This document shows, piece after piece, positions 12,526-46,729 of a stretch of 64,000 nt of DNA (position 1 is its first letter; every line of letters begins with the position of its first letter). Location of the stretch: assembly GCA_965248805.1 (NCBI GenBank), contig CBDFKJ010000006.1, positions 205,473-269,472 of the forward strand, in the 5' to 3' direction. Source of the DNA: Alphaproteobacteria bacterium (GTDB lineage: Bacteria; Pseudomonadota; Alphaproteobacteria; UBA6615). The notes beneath the pieces are model-generated. The model did not search any database. It saw only the letters and a list, made by a program, of their open reading frames with translations, and was not told the DNA's origin. Position numbers and translations under genes: made by a program.

Positions 12526-12689
12526 GGACACCTGCGGACTGCGAGCGCACTGTGTAGCACGCGTCGCCGCCGATGACACGTACGTGAACCGGCGCCCCTG
12601 GTGCTAACCGGCCCGTGTGCGTAGGCTGCCGCGCCGATCGGACAAGCAGGTTCGGTTTCATTGTGAACTTTGTAGTTTGGAGGCATCAG

Positions 12690-13108
12690 TGGCAAAGGCG
12701 AAGGCCAGCAAGACCATCAACGCACCGGCGAACCGGGTATGGGAAACCGTGAGCGCCTTTTCGGGCATCGAGCGCTTCCTGCCTTTGATCGCCAAATCCA
12801 CGGCAGTTGGTAGCGGCGTCGGCGCGACGCGTACGTGCGAGTTGCCCGACGGCGCGCAGTTGCACGAGCGACTAGAGAAATTGGATGATCAGTCGCGCTC
12901 CCTGACCTACTCGATCGTAGAATCGCCTCTGCCGATCGAAAACTATCTCAGCACCATCGAGGTGAGCGATGCCGGCGACGGCAAGTCCACCGTGACGTGG
13001 TCGAGTACGTTCGATGCCCCTGCCGACCAGGAACCGGCAATGCTCGAAATGCTCAGCGGCGCCTACGCGAGCGGGATCGACGGCCTGGAGAAGCTGCATC
13101 AGGGCTGA
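12690..13108 (+). CDS. SRPBCC (START/Bet v1-like, polyketide-cyclase-type) family protein
   Basis: About 139 aa beginning INAPANRVWETVSAF, typical of SRPBCC proteins. GTG start at 12690 preceded by GGAGG. Confidence 0.65.
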
Positions 13109-13213
13109 TCGAGCGCTTACACGCAGTGTTGCGCGCGCGCAAATGATCGGTGCAGACTAACCGGTTCGCCGTCATGCACATGACGGTGTGAGCGCCGAAC
13201 AGGCGGAACCGCC

Positions 13214-15328
13214 ATGCGCGCCCATGAGAGTTTGTCCATCACCGTTGCCATGCCAAGCTTCCGGGCTTGGCTGGGCTAATGGCTGTTCGCCGATCAGGAT
13301 CGCTGGGCACTGTGGCTGCCGGTTGGCATGGGGACCGGCGTCGCCGCCTACTTCGCCATGGCTACGGAGCCGGGCGCCTGGGTTGGGCCGGCAACTGTAG
13401 CCGCCGTTGTCCTGATCGGTCTCGCGCTGCGCCGGCAGCAGGGGGCAGTCTTCGTCGCGTTGGCGCTGGGCTCGATTGCGGTTGGGTTCGCCGCGGCGCA
13501 ATGGCGCACCGCTTGGGTGACCGCCCCGATCCTAAGCGAACGGCTCAACGCGGCGCCGGTGGAGGGCCGCGTCGTCGCGCTAGAGGCGCGCACGAATGGC
13601 GGCCGCGTGGTCCTCGAACCGCGGACCATCGCTGAGCTTGCGGCGGATCAGATGCCGGCGCTGGTACGCGTCAGCGTGCGCGGCGACACTGAGGCGCTGC
13701 GGTCGATCGCTGCACCCGGTAACTGGGTTTGGATGCGCGCGACGCTGTCGCCGCCGTCGGCGCCGGCGGCGCCCGGCGCGTTCGACTTTGCCCGTCAAGC
13801 GTGGTTCCAGCGCATCGGCGCGGTCGGGTTTTCGTTCGGCCTGCCGGAACGAGTGGACGCGCCGCCGGGCGAGGTCGACGGCGCCTCGGGCTGGCGGATC
13901 GGCGTCGAATCTCTGCGTCACGTCGGCACATTCGAATGATGGCGGCGCGATAGCCGCGGCGCTGATGATGGGTGAGCGCGGTGCCATCTCCGAGGCGGCG
14001 CTGACCGCGATGCGCGACGCTGGTCTGGCGCACTTGTTGGCGATATCCGGCCTGCACATAGGCTTGGTGGCCGGATTGGTGTTCTTCGCGGTGCGCGCCG
14101 GCTTGCCCCTGTCGCCGTCCATCGCTCTGCGCTACCCCATCAGGAAATGGGCTGCGTTGGCCGCCGCCCTGCATCGCTGGGCTATCTGACGATGGCCGGT
14201 GCGCCGGTGCCGACACAGCGGGCGTACCTGATGGCGGGGCTGGTCCTGATCGGGATCGCGCTGGATCGCCGCGCCCTGTCCATGCGCCTGGTCGCGTGGG
14301 CTGCTGCAGTTATTCTGCTCCTGCGGCCGGAAAGCCTACTGGGCGCCAGCTTCCAACTATCCTTCGCGGCCGTGATTGCGCTTATCGCCGCCTACGAGTG
14401 CATCGGCCCCCATTGGCGCGAGTGGCGTCGCGCCGCGCCGGCGCCGCGCAGGCTGCTGCTATATTTCGTGACGGTGGCATTCACGTCGGTGATCGCAGGG
14501 CTGGCGACGGGCGTCATCGGCCTGTTCATTTTTCACCGCGTCGTCGCCTATGGCTTGCTGGCCAACATGATCGCGGTGCCGCTGACCGCGTTCTGGGTCA
14601 TGCTGTGGCCCATGTTCGCCTATGCGCTGATGCCGTTCGGACTGGAGGGCTGGGCCTTGCAACCGATGGTCTGGGGCATCGACGGCATTCTGGCCGTGGC
14701 GCGGACCGTCAGCGCCTGGCCGGGCGCCGTCCACCTGTTGCCCGCGGCACCGTCCCTTGCGTTTGGTCTTTGTGTGCTCGGCGGACTGTGGCTGTGCCTG
14801 TGGCGCCAATCCTGGCGGCTCGCCGGGCTGGCGCTGATCGCGGTCGGGCTTGCCGCAGTTCCAACCGCGCCGCGGCCGCATGTCTTGATCTCCGAAGACG
14901 GACGGCTGGCTGCGGTGCGTGCGCACGATGGCGGACTATTGTTCTCCGACAAGCGCCGCGGGCGCTTCGAGCGCGAGATGTGGCTGCGCCGGGAGGGCAG
15001 CGCGACTTGGCGGACGATTGCCGAGGCGGGCGCGGCGAACGGTATCGCATGCGATCGGATCGGCTGTATCTACCGGGCCGCCGGCACGAGCGTCGCCATC
15101 GCCCGCGATGAGCGGGCTCTTGCGGAGGATTGCTTCGCGGTCGACGTATTGATCAGCGCGGTTCCGGTGCGCGGTGACTGCCCGCGCCCGCGACTAGTGA
15201 TCGATCGTTTCGACCTCTGGCGCGAAGGCGCGCATGCGGTTTGGCTGGATCGGGCCGGGCCCCGTGCGGTCTCGGTGGCGCAGGCACGCGGCGAACGCCC
15301 ATGGTCACCGCGACGCGGCTATCAGTAG
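13214..15328 (+). pseudogene. comEC: ComEC/Rec2 DNA internalization channel, disrupted by an in-frame TAA and two frameshifts
   Basis: ComEC signatures are spread over three frames (WLFADQDRWALWLPVGMG; LAHLLAISGLHIG; PVPTQRAYLMAGLVL). A TAA at 13277-13279 splits MPSFRAWLG from WLFADQDRW. Frameshifts lie at about 13925-13945 and 14160-14175. Confidence 0.8.
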
Positions 15329-16029
15329 CCGCGGATCAAGCCGACAAGCCGGCCCTGGATGGCGACCTGCTCGGGGCCGAATATCCGCGTCTCGTAGGCG
15401 CGATTGGCCGGCTCCAAGGCGATGGAATTGTGGCGTTTGCGCAGCTTCTTCAGCGTGACTTCTTCGCCTTCGACCAGCGCCACAACGACCGATCCCGGCT
15501 CGGCGTCGTCACACCGCTCGATCACGATCGTATCGCCGTCGTGGATGCCGGCATCGATCATCGAATCGCCTTCAACTTCCAGCGCATAGTATTTTCCTTT
15601 GCCGAGGAGCTGCGGCGGCACGCTAACGTGCCGGTTCTCTTCACGCAGCGCCTCGATGGGCGTGCCGGCCGCGATCTTGCCCATCATCGGCAAAGACACG
15701 CCGTTGGTCTCGTCGTTGCGGGCCTCGGCGGGCTCTGCGCGGCCGCGGGCAAAGTCCCCGCGTATGACCTTTGGGTCGAACCGCTTGCGGTCGTCCTTCG
15801 ACCCGGCAGCGGCATCCTCCGGCAGTCGGACCACCTTCAACGCGCGGGCACGGTGGGCAAGGCGTTGGATGAACCCGCGTTCCTCCAACCCGGTAATGAG
15901 GCGGTGGATGCCGGACTTGGAGCGCAGGTCGAGCGCATCCTTCATCTCTTCAAACGACGGCGACACGCCATGCGTGCGCAAGTGCCCGTTGATGAACAGA
16001 AGCAATTGATGCTGCTTGCGCGTCAGCAT
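15322..16029 (-). CDS. lexA: SOS repressor LexA
   Basis: 235 aa with an N-terminal winged-HTH ([12 protein letters not shown]) and a C-terminal S24 peptidase carrying the Ser/Lys dyad region. Confidence 0.93.
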
Positions 16030-16129: not shown

Positions 16130-16144
16130 GTTCTAGTTTGGTTC
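16130..16144 (-). promoter_or_regulatory. alphaproteobacterial LexA operator GTTCtagtttgGTTC (GAAC-N7-GAAC on the lexA coding strand)
   Basis: Exact GTTC-N7-GTTC about 100 bp upstream of the lexA start. A degenerate second copy, GAACaaaacaaCAAC, lies at 16105-16119. Confidence 0.7.
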
Positions 16145-26801: not shown

Positions 26802-30655
<3,854 letters not shown>

Positions 30656-37151: not shown

Positions 37152-37615
37152 TGCCCATCCACGCCGAGCAGCGTGTGCTGCCGTACTCGCAAGCGCAGAT
37201 GTATCGCCTGGTCTCCGATATAGAAACCTATCCGGAGTTCCTGCCCTGGTGCCTGGCGGCGCGTATCAACCGGCGCAAGGAGGAAGTCATCTGGGCCGAC
37301 ATGGTGGTCGGCTTCCGGATGTTCCGCGAGACCTTCACCTCCAAGGTGACGCTCGACGCGCCGGAGCGGATCAACGTCGAATACATCTCCGGTCCGCTCA
37401 GCCACATGCGCAACGACTGGCGGTTTGCCGCGCTCGGCGACGGACAGTGCGAGATCGACTTCTATGTCGATTTCGATTTGCGCTCGAAGAACTTGCAGCG
37501 CATGGTCGGCGTACTGTTCCACGAGGCCGTCAAGCGCATGGTCACCGCCTTCGAGGTGCGTGCGACCGACCTCTACGGACGGCCGCCCTACGGTGCCCTG
37601 AGCACGGTGAAATAG
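37151..37615 (+). CDS. SRPBCC family protein, RatA/Coq10-like (annotated elsewhere as a type II TA RatA-family toxin)
   Basis: 154 aa; a lipA-adjacent START-domain protein conserved in alphaproteobacteria. Confidence 0.75.
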   Translation: MPIHAEQRVLPYSQAQMYRLVSDIETYPEFLPWCLAARINRRKEEVIWADMVVGFRMFRETFTSKVTLDAPERINVEYISGPLSHMRNDWRFAALGDGQCEIDFYVDFDLRSKNLQRMVGVLFHEAVKRMVTAFEVRATDLYGRPPYGALSTVK

Positions 37616-37699
37616 TCAGGGTGCCACCGTCTCGCCGGCGATCTTCGCGAACAGGCCGTCCAATTCCGCCGCCAACGCGGCCAAGTCGGCATTGTCGCC
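37616..37699 (-). pseudogene. C-terminal 27 codons of a DUF302 gene displaced by an IS insertion (GDNADLAALAAELDGLFAKIAGETVAP*)
   Basis: In-frame coding-like tail ending at TGA 37616-37618. It continues the DUF302 fragment at 39155-39440 across the IS element. Confidence 0.6.
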
Positions 37700-39152
37700 T
37701 TAGCAGCCCGGTGATGAAGTCGCGCTTTGATCAATCGGTTTCGGGGATGATGATAACGAGCATGGCTGGTTTGCCTTCGATGTTCGCCACGATGGCGATC
37801 GCCAGGGCAGCATCGAACTGAATAACGAACAAAAGGGTGCTCTTTGCACTCGCAGCCTCCCTCGGCGTGCCTGATCCGAACAGCGCGCGCGTCAGAATGC
37901 CGAGATTGAACCCGGCGACATGGATCAGGTAGCGTTTGTGGACGTTCTCGCGCGCCCGCAGCAACGCGCGGCGCATGCCGCCACGGTCGAGGACATGGGC
38001 GAAGCTGCGCTCGACCATCATCACCGCGCCTGCGCATGGCGTTCCGCGCGACGCCGGACTTCAATCGCGCCCGGTTGGCGTAGACAGCCTGACGTGCCGC
38101 CTGGTCGCCATGCCAGCGCAGATAGCCGTTGGCGGGCTCCGGCTCGGAGATCCGCGTTTTCCAGACGCCGCCGTCGAGGTCTTTCAGCCCCTCGCGTGAA
38201 TGATAGCCCTTGTCGCCAACGAGACTGCAGGGCTCTGCCCGTGTTGGAGCCAGGCCGACCTCGGCGAGGTTGCGCGCGGCCGCCTCCAGCGTCCCAGGCA
38301 AAGTCGTCGTGTCGCCTTCATCGGCTGGATAGATCGGTGCCGCAACGATGACGCCGGTGTCGAGATCGACCGCGTGCTCGGGCTTGTAGGCCAGATGCGT
38401 GGTGCCGTCCTTCATCCGCGCGATCTTCGCATCAGGATCGGTCGGGCTCGTCCAATCCTTGTTCGAAAGCTTCTTGCCCTTCCGCCGGCGATCGAGCCGG
38501 ACGAGGTCGTCGATCGTCGGCGTTTCGACGCCACTCTCCTTCGCCATTTGCGTCAGCATCTCGCGATAGGTCTCGCCGCTATCGCGCCGCACGATGGCTC
38601 GCAGGGCGGCGTTGGCTTCCATCGTCGAGCCGTCGACGCCGATCCGCTCGCCCTTCACCAGGCCGCGCGCGGCGACGAGAGCCAGAACCCAGTCGAAAAC
38701 CTTTTCATGGACCTCGTGCGGCAGCCGGCCGCGCGTCTTCGACAACCAGGAACGATCGGGAACCTTGTCCCGGTTCGCCAACCGCAGAAACGCGCGAAGC
38801 GACAGCGAATCCGAACAGCGCCAAGCGATGCCGCGCTCGCTGCCGATGCCCTCGAAATAGCCGATCATGTGCATCCGGAAATAACGCCCCGGCGGCAGCG
38901 AAGGAGCCCCCATCCGAGGTGCGTAGTATGGCTTGCACGTCGCCTCCACGAAGCCGTCAAAGCCAGACTCGGTCAGCAACTCATGCAGCCGGTCGGAAAA
39001 CGCGTGTCCAGGCGAACGCGGCATCTCCGCCCATGTCACCACGAGGTCACCCTGAACCTCGCTCTGTCGTCTCAATGCCATCGCACGACGCCCGTCTAAA
39101 TCTCTATGTTCAGACAGAATCAGACACGCCGGACTTCGTCAACGGGCTGGTA
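37700..39152 (-). mobile_element. IS5/IS1182-like insertion sequence, copy 1 (about 1.45 kb) with imperfect terminal inverted repeats
   Basis: Termini are TAGCAGCCCGGTGATGAAG (37701-37719) and CTTCGTCAACGGGCTGGTA (39134-39152), forming inverted repeats. Encodes a DDE transposase. Confidence 0.75.
37731..39081 (-). pseudogene. IS5/IS1182-family DDE transposase with a frameshift near 38025-38050
   Basis: N-terminal 350 aa in ORF 37588..39081. The C-terminal about 97 aa (FAHVLDRGGMRR...YLIHVAGFNLG) continues in another frame as ORF 37731..38024. Confidence 0.75.
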
Positions 39153-39154
39153 GG

Positions 39155-39440
39155 CGATGGCGAACACGGCGCTGGGCGTCTTGTAGCTAAGGCTGGCGGT
39201 GCCGTCGGCATTCTCGGTCACGTAGAAACGGATCGGCGCCTCGATGCCGGCCTCGACGCTGGCGGCGAGCATGCGCACCGCGAAGTCGTTCCGGAACACA
39301 CCGGCCACATAGTTGCCGGCGATGGCGACGCCGCGGCGCTGCGCGCCGGCGCTGGCGCTGGCTTGCGTCACGAGCCCCATGCCGTTGGCTTCGATCGCCT
39401 GTTTGAGCCTAGTGGAGGGATCGGAACGAAAGAGTCCGAA
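39155..39440 (-). pseudogene. DUF302 domain protein fragment, truncated at both ends by IS elements
   Basis: ANGMGLV...AGNYVAGVF...RFYVTENADGTASLSY matches the DUF302 core. The reading frame runs into the IS terminal repeat (AIAYQPVDE). Confidence 0.6.
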
Positions 39441-40450: not shown

Positions 40451-41879
40451 TTATCAGCCCGTTGAAAAAGTCGCGGCCATCTGACTCTGTGACGAGGGCA
40501 TGGTTCGAGTCGGGAGCTTCGTCATGGCGTTGGGACGACAAGGGGATCGACAGGTGGACTTGATGGTCAGTTGGGCAGAGATGCCTCGCTCGCCCGGCCA
40601 CGTGTTTTACGACCAGCTGGCTGGTCGATGCCGGTTTCGATGCGTTCGCCGAGGACCTGTGTGAGCCCTATTACGCGCCAGGGATCGGACGTCCGGGAAT
40701 CCCACCGGGGCGTTACTTCCGGATGCACCTGGTCGGCTACTTCGAAGGCCTCGACAGTGAGCGGGCGTTGGAGTGGCGGTGCGCCGACAGCTTGTCGCTG
40801 CGTGAGTTCTTGCGCCTGGAGGCGCGCGCACGTGTGCCTGACCACTCGTCGTTGAGCACGATCCGCAGCCGCACGCGGTGCATGAGGCAGTGTTAGCCTG
40901 GGTGCTGGACGTTCTTGGCGAGCACGGCCTGGTCAAGGGCGAGCGGATTGGGGTCGATGCTTCGACCATGGAGGCGAACGCGGCGCTGCGCTCGATCGTG
41001 CGCCGCGACAGCGGCGAAAGCTATCGCCAGATGCTGCAGCGCATGGCCGCCGACAGCGGGATCGAGACCGCGGCGAATGACTTGGCGCAGATGGATCGGC
41101 GGCGCAAGGGCAAGAAACTCTCCAATGCGGACTGGGTCTCGACGCGGAGGCCAAAATCGCCAGGATGAAGGACGGCACGACGCATCTGGCCTACAAGCCC
41201 GAACACGCGGTCGACCTCGACACCGGGGCGGTGATCGCGGCCGAGCTGTATCCGGCCGATCAGGGCGACACGACCACCCTGCCGACAACGTTGACGTCAG
41301 CCGAGGCCAAGCTGGCGGCTGTGGGCGCAGCGCCGACGGCCGACGAACCGGCGGAGCTGGTGACCGACAAAGGCTACTTCGGCCGCGAGGTGCTGAAGTC
41401 CCTTGCCGACGGCGCCTGGACGACCCGCATCGCCGAACCGAAGGGCAAGGGGCTCTCGCGCTGGCACGGCGACGACGCCGCTCGGCGGGCCGTTTACAAC
41501 AACCGCAACCGATTGCTGTCGGGCGTGGCGAAGGCCGCGTTCAAACTCCGCGCCGAAGTGGTCGAGCGGGGCTTCGCCCAGGTCCTCGATCGCGGCGGCA
41601 TGCGCCGCACTTGGCTGCGTGGGCGCGAGAACGTCGGCAAGCGCTATCTGATCCACGTCGCCGGACACAACCTGGGCGTCCTATTGCGCCAGTTGATCGG
41701 CGCCGGGACCCCGCGAGAGGCTGCGGCCAAGGGCTTGGCGGTCCTGCTGCTTGTCTTGCGACAGGAACAATCGCTGATCATTATCCTCGCCCTCAATAAC
41801 CCCCCGGCGCCGGGTCTCGCCGCCGCCATTGTTATCACGCCCGATGCTTCATCAACTCAGTCTTCTTCAACGGGCTGCT
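40451..41879 (+). mobile_element. IS5/IS1182-like insertion sequence, copy 2, heavily degraded
   Basis: Termini are TTATCAGCCCGTTGAAAAAG (40451-40470) and CTTCAACGGGCTGCTA (41864-41879). The transposase is about 65-70% identical to copy 1 and is broken by at least three frameshifts. Confidence 0.7.
40540..41790 (+). pseudogene. IS5/IS1182-family transposase fragmented by at least three frameshifts
   Basis: Homologous segments sit in different frames: VSWAEMPRSPGH; LVDAGFDAFAE...GRYFRMH; ORF 40878..41168 (GLVKGERIGVDASTMEANAALR); ORF 41165.. (MKDGTTHLAYKPEHAVDLDTG...RYLIHVAGHNLG). Confidence 0.7.
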
Positions 41880-44677: not shown

Positions 44678-46725
44678 TTGAACATTACCGCCCTACTGGC
44701 GCTGCTCCCAGCCGCCGTGGTCGCCTATCGGCACCGGGGAGGGCGAAGCGGTGTCTACTGGCTGACGACCGGTGTGGCATTGGCCGGGCCCGTGCTGTGG
44801 CTGGTCGCGCGGTTGCATGCGACTTGGAACGCGGGGTTCGACGCCTCGATCTGGCTGATCATCGGCACCACGATGGCACTCTACGCGGTGTTGGCCATCG
44901 CCACGCGTCACACCTGGCGGTTGGCGCCGCTCCTGATGCCTTATGTGTTGGCGCTTGGACTGATCGCTACCGTATCGAGTTCGGCCGACAGCCGCCCCCT
45001 GGTGGGCATCGCGCCGAGCGGCTGGCTGCAGGCTCACATCTTGACCGCTTTGCTGGCCTACGGCGTCATCACGTTGGCCGCGATCGCGGCCCTGGCGGTG
45101 ACGGTGCAGGAGCGGGCGCTCAAGGCCAAGCGCGCAAGCCGGTTGGCGGAACTGCTGCCGTCGGTTGCCGATGGCGAGGCCCTGCAACTGGGCCTTCTCG
45201 CGGCCGGCCAGTTCGCTCTCGGCGTCAGCCTGCTCAGCGGCATGGCCATGCAGCGGTTCAGTACGCGTGATCTGCTGATAGTTGACCACAAGACCATCTT
45301 CGTCTTGCTCAGCTTCATCGCGATTGGGCTGCTGCTGTGGACCCATCACCGCAGCGGCGTCCGTGGCCGGCGGGCGGCGCGGGTGGTGCTGGTGGCCTAC
45401 CTCCTCCTCACTCTCGGCTATCCCGGCGTGAAGTTCGTCGCCGATGTGATCCTGGCCCAGGACACGAGCCGAAAAACACGACCGGATCATGGGTTCGGGG
45501 GCGGCTGCGTCGCCGATCTGGAGTTGCGCGGGCAACGCGCACGGCGTAGTCTGCCTAATTCGTGGTCAGTCGAGATACTTGCCCGGAAAATGAGCAGATT
45601 GGCGCGGCAAGCAACTGAATCCAATACAGTCCGGGTCGACTCCATGCCGGCAGCATCGGAACCGTCGGTCCTGGGCTCGTTGCCGCTGTCGGTCCTGACC
45701 TTGGGCCCGACCCTCGGCATCGTTGCCGTCAACCCGGCCGCCGAGCAGTTCTTTGCCACCGGCGCCAGCGCGGTGACGGGTCTGCCTTTGCGTGCCCTGG
45801 TGGCGCCGGACAGCCCGGTCATCGCGCTCGTCGAGCAGGTTCGCGCACATGGCGCCTCGGTATCGCAGTCAAACGTCCTGATTGCGGGCGCGCGAATTGG
45901 CCGCCGTCTGGCGACGGTAACGGCGGCGCCGTTGGGGGACGACGGCGCCGGATACGTCCTGACGCTGCATGAACAGACGATGGCGCGCCGCATCGAGCAG
46001 CAACTCACGCACCTCAATGCCGCGCGCTCGGTGTCCGCCATGGCCGCCGTCCTGGCGCATGAAGTCAAGAACCCCTTGTCCGGCATTCGCGGCGCGGCAC
46101 AGCTGTTGGAGCGCAATGCCGCCGAGAACGATCGCGATCTAGCGCGCCTTATTTGCGACGAGACCGACCGCATCGTAGCGCTGGTCGATCGCATGGGAGC
46201 GTTCGCCGAGGCCGACGCCTTGGATCGTGAGGCCGTCAATGTTCACAAGGTCCTCGAACACGTGCGCCGACTGGCGGAGTCGGGATTTGCCAGCCACGTT
46301 CACTTCGTCGAGGCCTACGACCCCTCGTTGCCGCCGGCGTTCGCCAACCGCGATATGTTGGTGCAGGCCACACTCAACTTGATCAAGAACGCCGCCGAGG
46401 CAGTGTCCCAATCGGGCGGTGAAATTAGGCTTGAAACGGCCTATCGCCATGGCATGCGCATGTCGGTCGCCGGTGGCGCCGGATCGGTGGATTTACCACT
46501 GGAGATTTCGGTCCAGGACAACGGCGTCGGCATTACCGATGCCGTGCGCATGCACATGTTCGATCCGTTCGTCACCAGCAAGCCGAGCGGCTCGGGCCTC
46601 GGACTGGCGTTGGTCGCTAAGATCGTCAATGATCATGGTGGCGTCATCGACGTCGAAAGTCGGCCGCGCCGAACCGTTTTCCGCATCATGCTGCCGCTCC
46701 ACCTCAATGATCGCCAGGAACAGTC

Positions 46726-46729
<4 letters not shown>
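44678..46729 (+). CDS. ntrB: single 683-codon open reading frame: YpjD-like 8-TM cytochrome-c-assembly-family membrane protein (aa 1-262) running without a stop into the nitrogen-regulation sensor kinase NtrB (from Met323, ATG 45644)
   Basis: N-terminal part aligns end-to-end with E. coli YpjD ([21 protein letters not shown]..., [29 protein letters not shown]...). C-terminal part has PAS, HisKA ([19 protein letters not shown]) and HATPase domains. The 60-codon linker is rich in A/T-ending codons. TTG start. Confidence 0.7.

Follow-up and report, generated by a model that had tools for sequence, protein, structure and literature searches.

Does the reading frame next to lexA in this uncultured alphaproteobacterium still encode a ComEC DNA-import channel and, if not, how and how recently was the gene broken? 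The window (the whole stretch of DNA analysed, 64,000 nucleotides) carries recognizable ComEC sequence at 13214-15328 on the plus strand, which the first-pass annotation had read as a multiply lesioned pseudogene recording the decay of natural-competence DNA import in this lineage. We find that the locus is a comEC pseudogene, on the joint evidence of its lesions, its orthology, its intact relatives and neighbours, and the recent timing of the break, and that it is very probably orthologous to the ComEC-family inner-membrane protein of Alphaproteobacteria and was inactivated recently. Beyond this, we infer that the ancestral protein imported DNA and what its loss means for the phenotype.

Pfam matches to the locus are divided among reading frames. 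DUF4131 (PF13567, E 3.9e-16) lies in the first frame-1 piece, and the Competence domain (PF03772) is matched at profile positions 1-63 in a frame-2 ORF (E 7.7e-17) and at profile positions 63-269 in the last frame-1 ORF (E 4e-41). Since these profile coordinates are contiguous across the pieces, the pieces represent one gene cut by two frame changes; both this split and the lesions described below agree with the initial description of a broken comEC beside lexA. NCBIfam ComEC models matched the last two pieces below their cut-offs and left the first unmatched, and for TIGR00361 (ComEC_Rec2) the fragments reach 48 and 57 bits where the curated cut-off is 190 bits, as would be expected of pieces from a divergent subfamily that lacks the C-terminal domain. 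When the reconstructed protein was used as the query, more than 5,000 ComEC-family proteins were found, and those among the matches listed are typically 690-750 aa long and belong almost throughout to Alphaproteobacteria. The best full-length match is P0001, a protein of 715 aa with 73% amino-acid identity that is encoded on the contig L070 and carried on long ENA metagenome contigs.

Laid out against its homologues, the pseudogene falls into four segments on the plus strand. Codons 1-21, in frame 1 from the ancestral ATG start (13214-13276), encode an N-terminus kept in P0001/L070 and in the short contig L079; a second frame-1 segment (13280-13921) aligns with P0001 and encodes the N-terminal transmembrane helices and the DUF4131 OB fold; a frame-2 segment (13935-14171) opens the Competence domain and includes the conserved channel motif LAHLLAISGLHIG; and a last frame-1 segment (14174-15328) encodes the rest of the Competence domain from the PTQR motif onward and a degenerate β-lactamase-like C-terminal domain, with the final stop, TAG, at 15326-15328. 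A family profile built from 38 orthologues matched solved ComEC/Rec2 chains with E values from 2e-27 to 4.6e-20; the AISGLH and PTQR motifs both align with chains 9vc9, 9vcb, and 9vcf, and in chain 30bt PTQR alone was matched, and partly. The ancestral product thus shares the DUF4131 OB fold, PF03772, and both channel motifs with ComEC/Rec2 of naturally transformable bacteria (Bacillus subtilis, Legionella, and Neomoorella; PDB 9vc9, 9vcb, 9vcf, and 30bt). It would have been about 710 aa long, with an OB fold at the N-terminus, then a multi-helix "competence" channel domain, and at the end a short, degenerate tail of β-lactamase type. Judged by its homology to ComEC proteins that have been solved and tested, it would have carried single-stranded DNA out of the periplasm into the cytoplasm.

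Three disabling lesions lie within these 2.1 kb: a nonsense codon, a net 20-nt deletion, and a 1-nt deletion. The first is a TAA at codon 22 (13277-13279, plus strand), in frame with the ATG at 13214. The start and the first codons are conserved with P0001/L070 (MRAH.. versus MRAY..), and L079, a 730-bp ENA contig with 91.2% DNA identity to window positions 12589-13318, contains the preceding SRPBCC gene and the first 35 comEC codons in a frame that stays open to the contig end (MRALETLPLTVAVPSFRAWLGERLFADQDRWALWL). Codon 22 is GAA in L079 and TAA in the window, a single G>T change at 13277, and sense codons occupy this site in 25/25 aligned homologues. Since 20-45 residues precede the conserved ER(D/E)RWxLWLPV motif in all 25 of these homologues, the TAA falls inside the coding region. 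The view that this in-frame stop is not a homopolymer artefact therefore stands, as it is a substitution. Among the closest relatives compared, the gene is intact over its full length in P0001 and open at codon 22 in L079.

The second lesion is the scar of a net 20-nt deletion (13922-13934, plus strand), defined by DNA alignment with L070 and by the 25 homologues. Where L070 has 33 nt, the window has 13; frame-1 homology ends at a histidine codon (13919-13921), and frame-2 homology begins at an asparagine codon (13935), at a cost of about seven codons and a shift from frame 1 to frame 2. The surrounding segment, LRH-AVFTRVTRAQP-NDGGAIAA, has the same length in 25/25 homologues. Past the scar, frame 1 meets a TGA at 13937-13939, and frame 2 reads NDGGAIAAALMMGERGAISE...LAHLLAISGLHIG...RKWAALAAAL until it ends at a TGA at 14187-14189. 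A frameshift at about 13925-13945 had been annotated here; its position was right, but the DNA alignment with L070 replaces the one-base shift that it implied with the 20-nt deletion. The third lesion is a 1-nt deletion (14167-14173, plus strand) that brings the reading back to frame 1, again by the L070 alignment and the 25 homologues. Frame-2 homology stops at CTG 14169-14171 and frame 1 picks up at TCG 14174, beginning SLGYLTMAGAPVPTQRAYLM... and running to the TAG at 15326-15328. The 1-bp deletion annotated at about 14160-14175 is upheld by the one base missing from a segment whose length is invariant in the 25 homologues, with the CCC run at 14167-14169 and the junction CTG|CA equally possible as its site. 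Since the two indels total 21 nt, the 3' part of the gene is back in its original frame. Judging from GAA at codon 22 in L079 and from the position of both gaps in length-invariant segments of 25 homologues, the three lesions are derived changes.

The out-of-frame stretch between the second and third lesions encodes the start of the channel domain with the invariant AISGLH motif, and PTQR directly follows the third lesion. The 20-nt deletion just before the channel domain throws the AISGLH channel-helix segment out of frame, and three independent mutations, GAA>TAA, the net 20-nt deletion, and the 1-nt deletion 240 nt further on, abolish the gene. Structural and mutagenesis work on ComEC shows that conserved residues line the channel and that transformation is lost when a conserved arginine in it is mutated (PMC13539106); the channel residues of that study probably correspond to the AISGLH and PTQR motifs. 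Since no single reading frame of comEC encodes an intact channel protein, the cell would no longer be able to import DNA by the ComEC route.

Two long ORFs survive in the locus, a 203-aa N-terminal ORF (13328-13939; P0123) and a 393-aa C-terminal ORF (14147-15328; P0002), and the fact that public gene callers recorded both as proteins, together with the natural lack of one soluble domain in certain ComEC proteins (PMC8579336), could be taken to mean that the two act separately or together, or that readthrough and frame shifting restore a product, so that comEC still functions. We regard this as extremely improbable. The channel helices that bear AISGLH, at profile positions 1-63 of the Competence domain, are missing from both ORFs, and they are invariant in 38 homologues and conserved in the solved structures; no recoding can bring back the seven deleted codons, frame 1 holds two stops within the shifted segment, and none of the homologues is split likewise. 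TAA, moreover, is an ordinary stop here. Recoding of TAA was rejected because this codon terminates 10/50 genes in the window, and programmed frameshifting or a functional split gene was rejected on the physical absence of seven codons and on the position of the channel motif outside both long ORFs.

The comEC lesions could also be errors of sequencing or assembly, which we consider unlikely. The stronger form of this idea, that the gene is intact in the organism and that all three lesions are consensus errors or the chimeric consensus of co-existing strains, seems to us highly improbable. The window probably derives from a metagenome-assembled contig, indels do occur in long-read assemblies such as those that gave the related contigs, and the third lesion, a single nucleotide beside the CCC run, could by itself be a consensus error. 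Against this, all three lesions would have to be errors, and the G>T substitution that makes the TAA and the 20-nt deletion are atypical, non-homopolymer error types. Random placement would put all three in one 2.1-kb gene with a chance of about (2.1/64)^2, or about 0.001, and no break was found in the remaining non-IS genes checked across the 64 kb. By tblastn against the L070 locus, 19/19 syntenic neighbours gave single full-length matches, and the other window genes checked have essentially full-length Pfam matches, with the exception of a degraded IS5-like transposase at 40524-41670. The earlier count of about 55 intact neighbours was thus essentially right, on full-length syntenic matches for 19 of them and on Pfam for the others checked, the IS5-like remnant excepted.

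Independent assemblies of the same species point the same way over 2.4 kb and 5.2 kb. L076, a conspecific Logan contig with 99.6% identity, aligned to the window over 2358 bp with 0 gaps. L078, a conspecific "3x" long-read contig, also at 99.6%, has three single-base gaps against the window over 5.2 kb, two of them in its copies of trpG and trpD, which are broken there whereas the window has both genes intact, and the third just upstream of trpG. The two comparisons therefore leave no indel attributable to the window; both contigs end short of the comEC lesions. The alignment of L078 to the window also ends about 300 bp upstream of trpG (around 20638), and positions 1-999 of L078 hold different ORFs of 259 aa and 81 aa, a divergence due either to a rearrangement at strain level or to chimerism in this low-coverage contig.

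Look-ups and searches of GTDB representatives, JGI metagenomes, and proteins found no conspecific sequence spanning the lesions. GTDB representative genomes gave comEC matches of at best 56% identity, JGI metagenomes gave a single match at 46%, and exact-protein look-ups of the window's own ORFs returned no record. Two protein searches with the lesion region found nothing above 67% except P0002, in searches that were not exhaustive, as both missed P0001 and one missed P0123. Cluster look-ups of the neighbouring genes led to the contigs L076, L078, and L079, and comEC was reached in L079 alone, for its first 35 codons.

How long ago comEC was inactivated can be approached by comparing it with the nearest known relative. 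For the pair formed by the window and L070, dN/dS of comEC is 0.174, compared with 0.07-0.165 for 16 neighbours, at a dS of about 1, which is near saturation. Relative-rate tests with 11 outgroups revealed no significant excess on the window branch; the largest difference came from the closest outgroup, at 49 versus 35 (p = 0.16). Deviations at conserved columns number 13 in the window and 6 in P0001. With a dN/dS of 0.174 and no significant acceleration, comEC was under purifying selection for nearly all of the time since it parted from that relative and was inactivated recently. Long neutral decay of the gene was rejected on the same dN/dS and relative-rate tests.

A recent inactivation also raises the question of its spread. 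The lesions may be real and yet polymorphic or specific to one strain, with other members of the species keeping a working comEC, in which case there would be no lineage-wide decay. We regard this as possible though doubtful. The recent timing, the open codon 22 in the 91% relative L079, the intact nearest full-length orthologue, and the presence of the conspecific strains L076 and L078 in other samples all speak for it, but three accumulated lesions imply that this branch has for a while been able to do without comEC, and the look-ups and searches above found no intact conspecific allele. The wording "in this lineage" went too far in either case, as the break is shown in one genome alone, with the nearest full-length orthologue intact and L079 open at codon 22.

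The position of comEC beside lexA had been pointed out in the first-pass annotation. The window and L070 share the order lpxD-fabZ-lpxA-lpxI-lpxB-glyoxalase-gltA-gltX-SRPBCC-comEC-lexA-moeA-moaC-trpC-trpD-trpG, and since the order gltX-comEC-lexA recurs in about 40/65 alphaproteobacterial loci drawn from GTDB representatives, the lexA adjacency is ancestral synteny. Upstream of comEC lies an intact SRPBCC/Polyketide_cyc2 gene of 139 aa (12689-13108, plus strand, GTG start at 12689; PF10604, E 1.6e-25) with 81% identity to its syntenic L070 gene over its full length. Downstream, lexA is intact on the minus strand (15322-16029; Pfam LexA_DNA_bind and Peptidase_S24; NCBIfam TIGR00498, E 8e-47) and convergent with comEC; the two genes overlap tail to tail by 7 nt, as they also do in L070. 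The adjacency therefore has no special meaning, as the two genes converge, the arrangement is common, and an SOS box lies upstream of lexA alone.

That box, an alphaproteobacterial SOS-box-like direct repeat GTTC-N7-GTTC, is located at 16130-16144 (plus strand). The repeat occurs twice in the window (16130-16144 and 28098-28112) against 1.65 matches expected by chance, and since the count is near chance, the argument for the lexA box lies in its position and not in its number. Upstream of comEC (13109-13213) the repeat is absent, which speaks against a place for the gene in the SOS (LexA) regulon, and the CtrA box TTAA-N7-TTAA has zero matches anywhere in the window. Control of comEC by SOS or CtrA was rejected on these two results. 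No promoter-like site was found for comEC, and Rfam and tRNA scans of the window gave no matches. A short stretch at 13150-13175 upstream of comEC is conserved with L070 9930-9955 (GCAgACTAAccGGTTC versus GCAcACTAAggGGTTC) in an intergenic region that is otherwise unconserved between the two; it fits neither the SOS nor the CtrA consensus and may be a regulatory site.

We also examined the architecture of the subfamily to which the ancestral protein belonged. AlphaFold2 modelled the intact orthologue with confidence (pLDDT 89.9, pTM 0.87), and the best Foldseek match of this model is the ComEC OB domain 9iew, a weak one (E 0.44). Pfam Lactamase_B has no match in comEC, and the motif HxHxD[HC] occurs in the C-terminal part of 0/183 full-length homologues, so that the ancestral comEC shows no C-terminal metallo-β-lactamase nuclease domain with HxHxDH. 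Members of the alphaproteobacterial subfamily thus combine the OB fold and the channel with a degenerate, short tail of β-lactamase type, in line with a report that the canonical nuclease domain is missing from almost half of ComEC proteins (PMC8579336). The C-terminal region of about 150 aa (window 14870-15325) contains cysteines that are invariant in the 38-homologue alignment (C619, C624, C646, and C662 in P0001 numbering), and D645, H680, and W703 are invariant there too in P0001 and the 38 homologues. The four cysteines could form disulfides or a periplasmic metal site.

Elsewhere in the window, an apparently intact IS5-like transposase of 497 aa with DUF772 and DDE_Tnp_1 domains (37588-39081, minus strand) is inserted with the lipA and SRPBCC (ratA-like) genes on one side and a DUF302 gene on the other. 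Imperfect inverted repeats of 27 nt at 37695-37721 and 39132-39157 are candidates, the left one inside the transposase ORF, so the ends of the element are tentative. The degraded copy at 40524-41670 (plus strand) has 63-69% amino-acid identity to the intact one, is broken into five pieces in three frames, is truncated past residue 392, and is the only multiply frameshifted gene in the window besides comEC. A histidine kinase with PAS, HisKA, and HATPase domains (44678-46726, plus strand) lies upstream of an NtrC-like regulator; its N-terminal membrane region matches Cytochrom_C_asm (PF01578, E 7e-14), an unusual sensor module.

What the ancestral protein did in its host can be approached through its alphaproteobacterial relatives. 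In Rhodobacter, ComEC, ComF, and ComM are required for the entry of GTA DNA (PMC10883770, PMC6473078), and comEC is nearly universal among GTA-bearing Alphaproteobacteria, being found in 280/293 genomes (PMC10883770). Uptake of GTA DNA is the sole alphaproteobacterial ComEC role shown experimentally in these cited papers (PMC10883770, PMC6473078). ComEC of Rhodobacter capsulatus and Dinoroseobacter, which acts with ComF and ComM in GTA DNA uptake, belongs to the same alphaproteobacterial ComEC family, and Rhodobacterales proteins are found among the homologues of our pseudogene at about 54% identity (P0211), a likeness at the level of the family. Unlike the R. capsulatus GTA system, the window shows no GTA, comF, comM, or dprA gene and no CtrA box; comEA, a type IV pilus, and a GTA cluster are likewise absent within the 64 kb. 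The proposed decay of natural-competence DNA import was therefore an extrapolation, since the tail of this subfamily is motif-less and the role cited for it is GTA DNA uptake. What has been lost would be a ComEC-type DNA-import channel, with a role in import that is predicted for this clade.

Pseudogenes of comEC have also been reported elsewhere, for example in Francisella tularensis subsp. holarctica, endosymbionts, and Piscirickettsia, where the gene was likewise lost through frameshift or nonsense mutations. Those cases belong to widespread pseudogenization, whereas here the surrounding 64 kb is intact bar one IS remnant. An isolated recent loss of comEC is an ordinary pseudogene, a new example of a familiar phenomenon. 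For annotation, the result means that the 203-aa and 393-aa database proteins are fragments of one dead gene and that the locus should be labelled a comEC pseudogene. For the organism, it describes how an uncultured alphaproteobacterium with intact core genes around the locus recently suffered an isolated loss of its DNA-import channel. If comF, comM, dprA, and a GTA cluster were also decaying, the locus would document that a free-living lineage is losing a route of horizontal gene transfer. A further reading, that this is a natural knockout of a near-universal ComEC subfamily, which has its fixed place between gltX and lexA, in an otherwise undecayed free-living genome whose lineage has stopped taking up DNA, appears improbable to us at present. 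If true, DNA uptake would have stopped, for example, after the loss of GTA or under selection against incoming DNA, and the natural knockout would offer a comparative handle on the purpose of the ComEC subfamily with a motif-less tail.
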